A stretch of 63,749 bases of DNA, filler included, from Reclinomonas americana ATCC 50394 (lineage: Eukaryota): assembly GCA_048213135.1 (NCBI GenBank). It is 16 parts of 16 records of this genome, joined end to end, with 100 filler letters (N's around TTAATTAATTAA, not from the genome) between each part and the next. Parts side by side here need not be neighbours in the genome. Positions count along the whole stretch, not along the records: positions 40,508 to 47,695 come from AFZH01020705.1; positions 47,796 to 52,954 come from AFZH01020706.1; 14 more parts are not named here. One strand, written 5' to 3'. Below are positions 46,975 through 48,632 of this stretch, piece after piece. Every line of letters starts with the position of its first letter. Position 1 is the stretch's first letter. Both the position numbers and the translations under genes were made by a program. Below the pieces are notes generated by a model that did no database searches, was not told the origin of the DNA, and worked only from the letters and a program-made list of their open reading frames with translations.

Positions 46975-48632
46975 ATGGCTGCTGTTGGTGCGTGCAACAC
47001 CCATGCTCCTCTCTCTATACATATCGTGACAGGCAGCAGCAGCAGCAGCGTGAGAGAGCAGCGTTTGTTTGTTTGTTGAACATGGCGATGGTCCACTCCT
47101 GTCCACGCACTCACACGCACCCACACTCACGAGCGCACACACACATCGAGTGTGAGAGCGAGAAAGGGAGACACAGACACAGACAGAGAGCATGTCATCT
47201 GCGTGTGAAAGCAGAGTGAGAGAGGCATCTGGAACAGTCGTCCTCTTGTGTATCACTGAGAATGCGTGTGCTTGCGTGCGTGTCATTGTGCGAGACTACT
47301 CGTGCGTGTGTGTGTGTATGAGAGAGAGAGAGAGAGAGAGAGAGTCAGCAAGTGTGTAAGAAATGAGCATTGCAATCCTCATTCATCTCATCATTCGTCG
47401 TCATCATCGCAGTGCCGCGAAACTTCCGTCTGTTGGAGGAGCTTGAGGAGGGTGAGAAGGGCGGTGATCCCAATGGCTTTGTCAGCTGGGGCCTGGTGCG
47501 TGTGCTCTCCTGAGTGTGAGCAATGCATGTGACAACTGCGTCACTGACTGTCTCTGTAGGACTCAGCGCAGGGCGACCCGATTGCACTGGAGTGGTGGAC
47601 GGGCAGCATTGTCGGCCCCAACGTTGCGTGGGATAGGAGGAGAATGGAGCAAAGTTCAAGCGCTCTCTCTCCTTGCGTCGCTCTCACTCGCTCTCNNNNN
47701 NNNNNNNNNNNNNNNNNNNNNNNNNNNNNNNNNNNNNNNTTAATTAATTAANNNNNNNNNNNNNNNNNNNNNNNNNNNNNNNNNNNNNNNNNNNNTCCTT
47801 GCGTCGCTCTCTCCTTGCGTCGCTCTCTCCTTGCGTCGCTCTCTCCTTGCGTCGCTCTCTCCTTGCGTCGCTCTCTCCTTGCGTCGCTCTCTCCTTGCGT
47901 CGCTCTCTCCTTGCGTCGCTCTCTCCTTGCGTCGCTCTCTCCTTGCGTCGCTCTCTCCTTGCGTCGCTCTCTCTCGCTCTCTCCTTGCGTCGCTCTCTCC
48001 TTGCGTCGCTCTCTCTCGCTCTCTCCTTGCGTCGCTCTCTCTCCTTGCGTCGCTCTTTCTCTCTCCTTCCCCTCCAATCCCTCTCACTTCCACTTCGCCT
48101 GCACCCCACAGACACCCGCACACGGCGATCGTTTCTACCAGCTGTCGATTCACTGTGGTCCAGACGTTGCGCATCACAATACAACCCCATCCCGCTCCCC
48201 CCGTTCCACATCCACCTCACTCTTTCTCCCCTTCTCACAGTACCCGAGGGTGGCACCGGAAGTGCGCTTTGTCAACCGCGTGAACCTTGGTCGATGTTGC
48301 GTATAGGGAGTGGGAGAGTAAGAGTGTCGCACTGCTCAGCTTTCACTGACGAGAATTGCTGACTTGTGACTGCTCGTGCGCAGATGTTGCCGCCGATGGA
48401 CGAGTTTCGTTGCTTGAAGTTCGCTCTCTATCTCTCCATATTGTCCACCCGTCTGCGACACCCAACGACGCCTGTCTCCATCCCTCGTGCTCATCCCATC
48501 CCTCCCCTGCAGGTTCAACACCTCGAGTGGAACCAATCCATGAAGATGCGCGACTACCTCACCGCCGTTCGCGCACTCATGGCCGGCGAATTCGCCAACA
48601 CGCGGCAGCCTGGCGAGGGCGAGACGTACTGA
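46975..48632 (+). CDS. UBE2V: Ubiquitin-conjugating enzyme variant (UEV; Mms2/UBE2V), complete, 7 exons, ~135 aa
   Basis: Exons 46975-46987, 47413-47495, 47560-47622, 48112-48165, 48241-48295, 48384-48403, 48513-48632 give [21 protein letters not shown]...VSWGL...WTGSIVGP...[27 protein letters not shown]...QPGEGETY*. Confidence 0.95.
47796..48058. repeat. 16-bp tandem repeat (ctctccttgcgtcgct)n in a UEV intron
   Basis: Near-perfect tandem array, directly visible. Confidence 0.9.

Follow-up and report, generated by a model that had tools for sequence, protein, structure and literature searches.

A displaced class of predicted 5' splice sites and a second U1 gene with a complementary arm in Reclinomonas americana

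The stretch of DNA analyzed here (the window) comprises 63,749 nucleotides, filler included, from 16 records of the genome of the single-celled eukaryote Reclinomonas americana ATCC 50394 (assembly GCA_048213135.1), and it holds a gene for a UEV/Mms2-type protein whose introns begin in two different ways. Some of these introns follow a G as the last exonic base (position -1) and open as G/GTNNGT (class A; the slash marks the cut), and others follow A, C or T (H) and open as H/GTTGCGT or a close variant of it (class B). The same two classes, with the same tie to the -1 base, recur among predicted introns of a larger sample of the genome, which also encodes two types of U1 small nuclear RNA (snRNA) whose 5' arms are predicted to be complementary to one class each.

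The UEV gene sets the two classes of 5' splice site (donor) side by side, with class A at its first two introns and class B or its family at the remaining four (Table 1). An earlier, sequence-only reading of the window had listed six donors for this gene, and we recovered them with the same spellings; the resulting frame is open over 135 residues, though the sixth donor, A/GTTTCG, is unsettled. The same reading had used the tyrosine of the conserved motif CGPD/YP to place the cut of intron 4 at GT, and with good reason: moving the cut by -1, +1 or +2 takes it off GT and yields E-Y, D-D or D-V at the junction, whereas the GT cut yields CGPD-YP and scores 5.2 bits better than the in-frame GC cut at +3. 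At intron 6, the profile of homologues favors a rival donor at 48419 over that at 48404 (137.3 vs 129.3 bits), and 48404 is the choice of the gene finder and is favored by pairing with the variant U1 described below; the donor is therefore uncertain, and either candidate has an A at -1. The two donors, A/GTTTCG and A/GTTCGC, stand 15 nt apart (48404-48424), and the two gene copies do not differ in them; alternative splicing may be at work here, adding five residues. In the second copy, on contig C6122, all seven exons lie on a single contig, and intron 3, which in the window contains a 100-nt N linker (47696-47795), is unbroken. Intron 5 of that copy opens as T/GTTTCGT where the window copy has T/GTTGCGT, so the two hexamers are interchangeable at this one junction. 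The 13-nt first exon of the gene was missed by the gene finder.

Table 1. Positions of the features discussed, in the window unless a contig is named; a slash marks the exon-intron cut.
Feature	Position	Strand	Remarks
UEV/Mms2-type gene	46975..48632	+	7 exons, 135 aa; open frame; aligns with 10 UEV/Mms2 homologues
UEV exons	46975-46987, 47413-47495, 47560-47622, 48112-48165, 48241-48295, 48384-48403, 48513-48632	+
UEV intron 1	46988..47412	+	class A, G/GTGCGT, phase 1; homology-supported
UEV intron 2	47496..47559	+	class A, G/GTGCGT, phase 0; gene finder; not in homology-supported set
UEV intron 3	47623..48111	+	class B, C/GTTGCGT, phase 0; gene finder; homology-supported
UEV intron 4	48166..48240	+	class B, C/GTTGCGC, phase 0, within CGPD/YP; homology-supported
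UEV intron 5	48296..48383	+	class B, T/GTTGCGT, phase 1; gene finder; not in homology-supported set
UEV intron 6	48404..48512	+	A/GTTTCGT (class B family); gene finder choice; rival in-frame A/GTTCGC at 48419
Predicted GTTGCG donors of the window (19)	span 410..59585		-1 base: 7 C, 6 A, 5 T, 1 G
Sole predicted GTTGCG donor of the window after G	29780..29785	-
Variant U1 gene	G000:C429:9347-9500 and C479:4310-4463		5' arm AUACGUAACUU; outside window
Canonical-arm U1 gene	C343:5715-5887		5' arm AUACUUACCUG; outside window
U2 gene copies	G000:C14:162841-163039 (L103); C409:5103-5319 (L104); C371:59171-59386 (L105)

The larger sample consisted of the window together with fetched stretches (25 stretches, 805 kb out of the 108-Mb assembly), and two contigs, C1 and C2, were left out because of their lower G+C content and their lack of GTTGCG-type donors. 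All introns are predictions from sequence: the gene finder gave 1,984, or 1,981 once duplicates were removed. It was self-trained from a seed of average amino-acid frequencies and from a donor state that started as a bare GT; its donor model contained no exon bases throughout, and the GT and AG ends were imposed by the model. A junction was considered homology-supported when it beat all other in-frame GT or GC donors within 45 nt by at least 2 bits, and the set scored in this way comprised 82 junctions of the genes for dynein heavy chain, PheRS beta and UEV, with 49 supported and 33 unresolved.

GTTGCG is the most frequent donor hexamer in this sample (350 of the 1,981 introns), and it follows a G in 16 of these 350 cases, compared with 1,196 of the 1,631 other donors (Fisher p = 3e-137). 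The sequence-only reading had named such a genome-wide association as the test of its claim, and among predicted introns the association holds. The hexamer is used in all three phases, with G at -1 in 3 of 115, 9 of 111 and 4 of 124 cases, and its link to the -1 base is seen in each of seven long stretches. With the donor model switched off, G precedes 15 of 302 GTTGCG donors vs 1,178 of 1,668 others, and the -1 base shares 0.07-0.28 bits of mutual information with positions +3 to +7, a quantity that never exceeds 0.012 in 100 shuffles. A count that uses no annotation finds GTTGCGT 397 times where an order-3 Markov model expects 160, with the excess present after A (114 observed, 32 expected), C (105 and 42) and T (147 and 59) and no such excess after G (31 and 26). 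Among the 49 homology-supported junctions, G stands at -1 in 1 of the 9 that start with GTTGCG or GTTGAG vs 37 of the 40 others (p = 3e-6). One of the supported junctions, dynein intron 43, is itself G/GTTGCGT, and donors of this form can therefore work. Within the window, the gene finder predicts 19 GTTGCG donors among 125 introns, and G precedes 1 of them vs 80 of the 106 other donors; the earlier count of 16 in 17 after a non-G base becomes 18 in 19, with the same exception at 29785. Taken as raw hexamers, donor or not, GTTGCG occurs 57 times in the window, 9 of them after G.

Class B could conceivably be an artefact of prediction, either made by the gene finder or arising because the true cut falls at the in-frame GC three bases on (GTT/GCGT, giving GC-AG introns). 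Its junctions are indeed predictions from sequence, and the GC cut scores better in 2 of the 14 GTTGCG introns that could be compared, 3 of 17 having been dropped for profile scores below 25 bits. The GT cut scores better in the other 12, on which count we rejected the GC-AG interpretation, and the class appears without a donor model, without annotation, in all phases and in all seven long stretches. We regard an artefact as exceedingly improbable.

Of the mixture components of the donors, one, spelled GT-T-G-C-G-T (class B, H/GTT-GC-GT), accounts for 486 of the 1,981 introns, roughly a quarter, and another, GT-(G or A)-(C, A or T)-G-T (class A), for 889. Class B is class A displaced by one base into the intron: the cores GC, TC, GA and GT occur in both, so that the earlier proposal of one spelling in two positions one base apart extends to G-K-T-N-N-G-T, with the minor cores GA, GT and TC included. 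Class B makes up 438 of the 769 donors that follow A, C or T and 48 of the 1,212 that follow G; as had been anticipated, this is a tendency and not a rule, since 331 of the 769 non-G donors fall outside the displaced class. In other respects the classes resemble one another, with a median length of 70 nt for class B vs 69 nt, the same 3' end and the same profile from -5 to -3, and a CTCAC branch-like motif in 32% vs 35% of introns; no distinct branch or acceptor signal for class B was seen among the 1,981 predicted introns. Class B accordingly has the features of U2-type (major) introns, with GT-AG ends, although these are imposed by the model, and with the 3' end and branch region of other introns. 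We rejected a U12-type (minor) identity on the donor, as GTTGCGT is unlike the RTATCCT-like sequence that minor introns carry; genes for U11, U12 and U6atac were not searched for. Both classes occur within the same gene in 114 of the 128 predicted genes with at least five introns, a count inflated somewhat by long predicted genes that are fused neighbors.

Two types of U1 gene are present in the assembly, and their arms differ by three substitutions (U5G, C8A and G11U), with helix H starting at position 12 in both. The variant type was found on two contigs, C429 and C479, with identical RNA sequence and flanks that are 94-97% identical, and these are probably two alleles. It aligns to the Rfam covariance model RF00003 with an unpaired 5' arm, the loops of stem-loops I and II, the Sm site and a terminal UUCG hairpin, and its predicted fold leaves the first 11 nt, the arm, unpaired (z = -2.87). 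The canonical-arm gene retains the loops, Sm site and terminal hairpin as well, and the region upstream of it is an N gap. Upstream of the variant gene are a CCACAA box at -65 and a second shared box at -37, and its promoter looks intact as judged from these elements. The CCACAA box lies at -61 to -69 in all five snRNA genes examined (variant U1, the two U2 types, U5 and U6), and a GTGAC/GTCAC/ATCAC box lies at -32 to -37 in four of the five, the exception being U6. The snRNA genes that share the CCACAA box here are usually made by two different polymerases. A search for a third U1 type with a stem-loop IV pattern gave six matches, comprising the three known genes and three that are not U1, and a loop I/II pattern gave seven, of which three are known, three of the other four proved not to be U1 and the fourth (on C494) shares the matched string of one of these; a diverged third type may escape both patterns. 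An exact-pattern scan of metagenome contigs for the variant arm returned three matches, none of them U1, and a domain search of the genome for U1-C returned no match, though an intron-rich genome weakens such a search.

The variant arm is predicted to form a continuous duplex with the displaced donor GUUGCGU, in which C9 pairs with +1G, A8 with +2U, A7 with +3U, U6 with +4G (a wobble), G5 with +5C, C4 with +6G and A3 with +7U. C9 of U1 normally pairs with the exonic -1G and takes the intronic +1G in this shifted duplex. Canonical U1 placed in the shifted register has mismatches at exactly C8 and U5. The median duplex energies of the canonical and variant arms are -1.4 and -8.5 kcal/mol on class B and -6.5 and -4.2 kcal/mol on class A, and the variant is the better partner for 95% of the 486 class B donors and for 17% of the 889 class A donors. 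Among the 4,455 arms that differ from the canonical one by three substitutions, the variant arm ranks 23rd on a sample of 30 class B donors. Facing U1 position 5, C occurs in 386 and A in 27 of the non-G GTTnnG donors, compared with 451 and 261 of the G/GTnnG donors (p = 5e-33), an excess of C that is predicted by G5 of the variant and not by U5 of the canonical arm. Imperfect class B donors have A at -1 more often (107 of 175 vs 89 of 263 non-G cases; p = 2e-8), in line with pairing to U10. Donors resembling class A but following a non-G base are enriched in +4C (112 of 489 vs 77 of 529; p = 7e-4), and the variant U1 could also read these.

The sequence-only reading had proposed that the intron's +1G takes over the role of the missing exonic G, which implies a single U1 that slides by one base. 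The register in this proposal is right in outline and agrees with the predicted duplex, where +1G does stand on C9; the reader of class B is probably a dedicated U1, given that the canonical arm pairs poorly with class B and that a matching second U1 gene exists. That U1 recognition can be separated from the choice of cleavage site had already been published (PMC4856993, PMC11162779). Nonetheless, one canonical U1 reading class B in the +1 register, with the variant gene silent or incidental, deserves consideration, as the same two papers describe this register in human cells with ordinary U1, and as C9 and U10 are present in the canonical arm too, so that the pairing of +1G and the excess of -1A fit it equally. 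It must contend with a median energy on class B of -1.4 kcal/mol and with its prediction of A at +5, when C outnumbers A by 386:27 and no GTTAAGT donors were called, and retention of a matched arm, promoter boxes and fold would be surprising in a silent gene. We therefore consider it quite unlikely.

Based on these predicted pairings, it is likely, in our judgment, that the variant U1 gene is expressed and that its RNA recognizes class B in a register fixed at +1, with the intron supplying the whole helix. Class A donors (G/GTNNGT) would be read by canonical U1 in the usual register, and class B donors (H/GTTGCGT) mainly by the second U1 with its U5G, C8A, G11U arm, whose C9 would sit on the intronic +1G rather than on the exonic -1G, and whose A8-A7-U6-G5-C4-A3 would cover +2 to +7; a helix that is wholly intronic would free the exon from ending in G. 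A single canonical U6 would then take over, most likely pairing with +6G/+7U while one extra base loops out, and cleavage would stay before GT despite the moved register. U6 C42/A41 normally read +5G/+6U (PMC11162779). At class B these would be without a partner, the donor having +5C/+6G, hence the probable pairing with +6G/+7U; this looped-out U6 step is probable, though more weakly inferred than the U1 step. The broader proposition, to which we would give somewhat less than an even chance, is that one major spliceosome operates two parallel 5' splice-site codes, in which two U1 particles, one using the usual register and one hard-wired for the +1 register, share the introns of nearly every gene and an unchanged U6 routinely accepts a displaced GU with a looped-out base.

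A different division of labor would make the variant the main U1, reading both classes as G-K-U-G-C-G-U without any change of position (with a G.A mismatch or a bulge for GTGCGT), and would leave the canonical gene limited to GTGAGT/GTAAGT-like donors or decaying. The commonest class A donor, G/GTGCGT, does pair nearly equally with the canonical and variant arms (-6.4 and -5.7), and the canonical gene was found once, with its promoter in an N gap, and the variant twice. Against this, G/GTGAGT, G/GTGTGT and G/GTTTGT (273 donors) favor the canonical arm (-10.5 vs -2.5, -7.4 vs -3.3 and -6.3 vs -2.7, respectively), and the canonical gene retains its loops, Sm site and terminal hairpin. This arrangement strikes us as very improbable.

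Several observations nevertheless weigh against a class B read by the variant U1. The variant gene scores 64 bits against RF00003 (E 2e-14, full model 1-166) and misses the gathering cut-off of 69.5; the canonical-arm gene, at 63.7, is also under it, and because both types fall short, the shortfall reflects divergence of the lineage. The excesses of A at -1 and -2 could equally arise from loop 1 of U5, and non-G class A donors show an excess of -2A as well (50 vs 33). The perfect Watson-Crick partner of the variant arm, GTTACG, is rare, with A at +4 in 5 of 429 donors and GTTACGT observed 22 times where 17.9 are expected, and no excess of A or U was found at +8/+9, where U2 and A1 of the arm could pair. 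Donors with +4C coexist with a standard U1 in other protists (bioRxiv 10.1101/2022.06.08.495308). Lastly, G at -1 is shunned even where it would be synonymous: among GTTGCG introns in phase 0 for which the codon before the cut could end in G without a change of residue, G is used in 1 of 70 cases where codon use predicts 25.9, and A in 43 where it predicts 11. U1 pairing offers no explanation of this avoidance, since U10 ought to accommodate the G in a G.U pair; either a later step disfavors G/GUUGCG or such sites soon decay to class A by the loss of one T.

These points lend themselves to an account in which steps after U1, through U6, U5, Prp8 or a protein that reads GUUGCGU, do most to shape class B, and the variant U1 came to match the motif later or contributes little. 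U1 pairing does not account for the fixed G at +4, for which A would be the better partner, or for the avoidance of -1G, and in other systems U1 is described as defining the site only roughly (PMC11162779). An altered downstream partner was not found in the snRNAs, however, as U6 and loop 1 of U5 are canonical, and two of the three arm changes hit exactly both positions at which canonical U1 fails in the shifted register. We judge this account unlikely and prefer recognition by the variant U1. As to the RNAs themselves, U6 has three genes of equal score, with a canonical ACAGAGA in both alignments shown, and three further two-mismatch matches in the genome, sought as a variant U6, are not U6. 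A family search of the genome for U5 found nothing; a pattern search gave 51 matches, and among the 24 scanned, those on C27 and C30 are weak U5 candidates (34.4 bits, E 0.029) whose loop 1 is canonical. U2 occurs as two diverged types (199 nt and 216-217 nt), and each keeps GUAGUA, the canonical segment that pairs with the branch site. In the branch region of all predicted introns (-40 to -10), CTCAC is the commonest 5-mer (32-35%), followed by CTGAC (14-15%) and CTAAC (2-3%); CTCAC leads although the branch-pairing segment of U2 is canonical, and a background of CT/CA repeats may account for part of this.

Human 5' splice sites that use a shifted register were reportedly described by Roca and Krainer in 2009. 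As in those sites (PMC4856993, PMC11162779, PMC9311317), the U1 helix of class B would lie one base into the intron with the cut at GT. The human sites use ordinary U1, and all non-canonical registers together are put at about 1.5% of sites (PMC11162779). In R. americana, unlike in human cells, one shifted class makes up about 25% of predicted introns and is tied to the -1 base, and a U1 gene is present whose arm would repair the mismatches of that register, the predicted pairing with canonical U1 being weak. What is a rare exception in humans seems routine and hard-wired in this organism. Two donor classes within one major spliceosome also recall the LUC7 classes, one of which leans on the exon side and the other on the intron side, with one register and one U1. 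Those left- and right-handed classes are set by LUC7 proteins (PMC11842720), whereas here the motif itself is shifted by one base and matched by an RNA paralogue.

Altered U1 arms have precedents. Roy and Bowser (bioRxiv 10.1101/2022.06.08.495308) describe U1 arms in Entamoeba (AACAAAC) and Mastigamoeba balamuthi (ACGUAC) that have co-evolved with an atypical donor and are complementary to it, as the variant arm appears to be here, and M. balamuthi shares with it U5G opposite C and an adjoining G.U wobble. Each of those organisms is described as having one U1 that matches its main donor in the usual register, in contrast to R. americana, where C8A and G11U are present too, the predicted register is shifted, and the variant is accompanied by a canonical U1 and by another class of donors. 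A canonical and an altered U1 in one genome are also found in Physarum polycephalum, which has standard and modified U1 candidates (bioRxiv 10.1101/2022.06.08.495308), and in the diplonemid S. specki (PMC12621601). The two arms of the diplonemid fit a single donor logo to a similar degree, and for Physarum the cited passage gives no split of donor classes, as opposed to the two arms matching two separate, abundant classes here. The two U1 versions of F. borealis have identical 5' ends (PMC13326754). A shifted U6 register has been described at the STAT3 tandem donor, where the GT is displaced from the +5/+6 read by U6 C42/A41 (PMC11162779); there the GT lies one base upstream (+4/+5) at one site, whereas the GT of class B sits a base further downstream, at +6/+7, in hundreds of introns, and its pairing with U6 is predicted. 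Our literature search found no second U1 matched to an abundant shifted donor class, with incomplete coverage of subscription journals and bioRxiv supplements.

Several features of the assembly and of neighboring loci were also observed. Window positions 10068-10167 and 14 further places hold N44-TTAATTAATTAA-N44 linkers between separate contigs, one of them the linker inside UEV intron 3. The translations of window positions 900-6200, 6400-9500, 10800-31000 and 55500-60400 resemble what we take to be an acyl-CoA dehydrogenase, a MiaB-type enzyme, a large HECT/SPRY protein and a VPS35L-like protein, respectively. The contig pairs C429/C479, C27/C30, C6/C8 and C5239/C6122 are about 90-98% identical; both haplotypes seem to have been assembled separately, with gene copy numbers in the assembly (G000) roughly doubled. 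Contigs C1 and C2 exceed 2 Mb, have a G+C content of 0.43-0.47 (first 10 kb) and contain no GTTGCGT, and the sole match to small-subunit rRNA is a 1.5-kb gene on C1 that was taken as bacterial; these two contigs are probably bacterial DNA within the assembly. The PheRS of the genome reaches its best identities, 51-54%, with plants, fungi and protists. An intron-free frame of 790 codons (L089:7108-9477; G000:C14:207108-209477), unusual for so intron-rich a genome, combines isochorismatase, 2OG-Fe(II) oxygenase and glutathione S-transferase domains.

Co-evolution of U1 arms and donors is rare, and the handful of cases on record stay in the usual register; a variant U1 that reads the displaced donors of R. 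americana would amount to a natural suppressor-U1 experiment at genome scale. With hundreds of introns cut at GT while the GU normally read by U6 stands at +6/+7 and not at +5/+6, the question of how U6, U5 and Prp8 fix the cut becomes testable. Such a U1 would also provide a simple route for introns to persist behind exons that are unable to end in G, and in genomes of this kind one donor in four will be misplaced by gene finders that rely on a single donor matrix. If two codes do operate in parallel, the ratio of the two U1 RNAs could act as a genome-wide switch of splicing.
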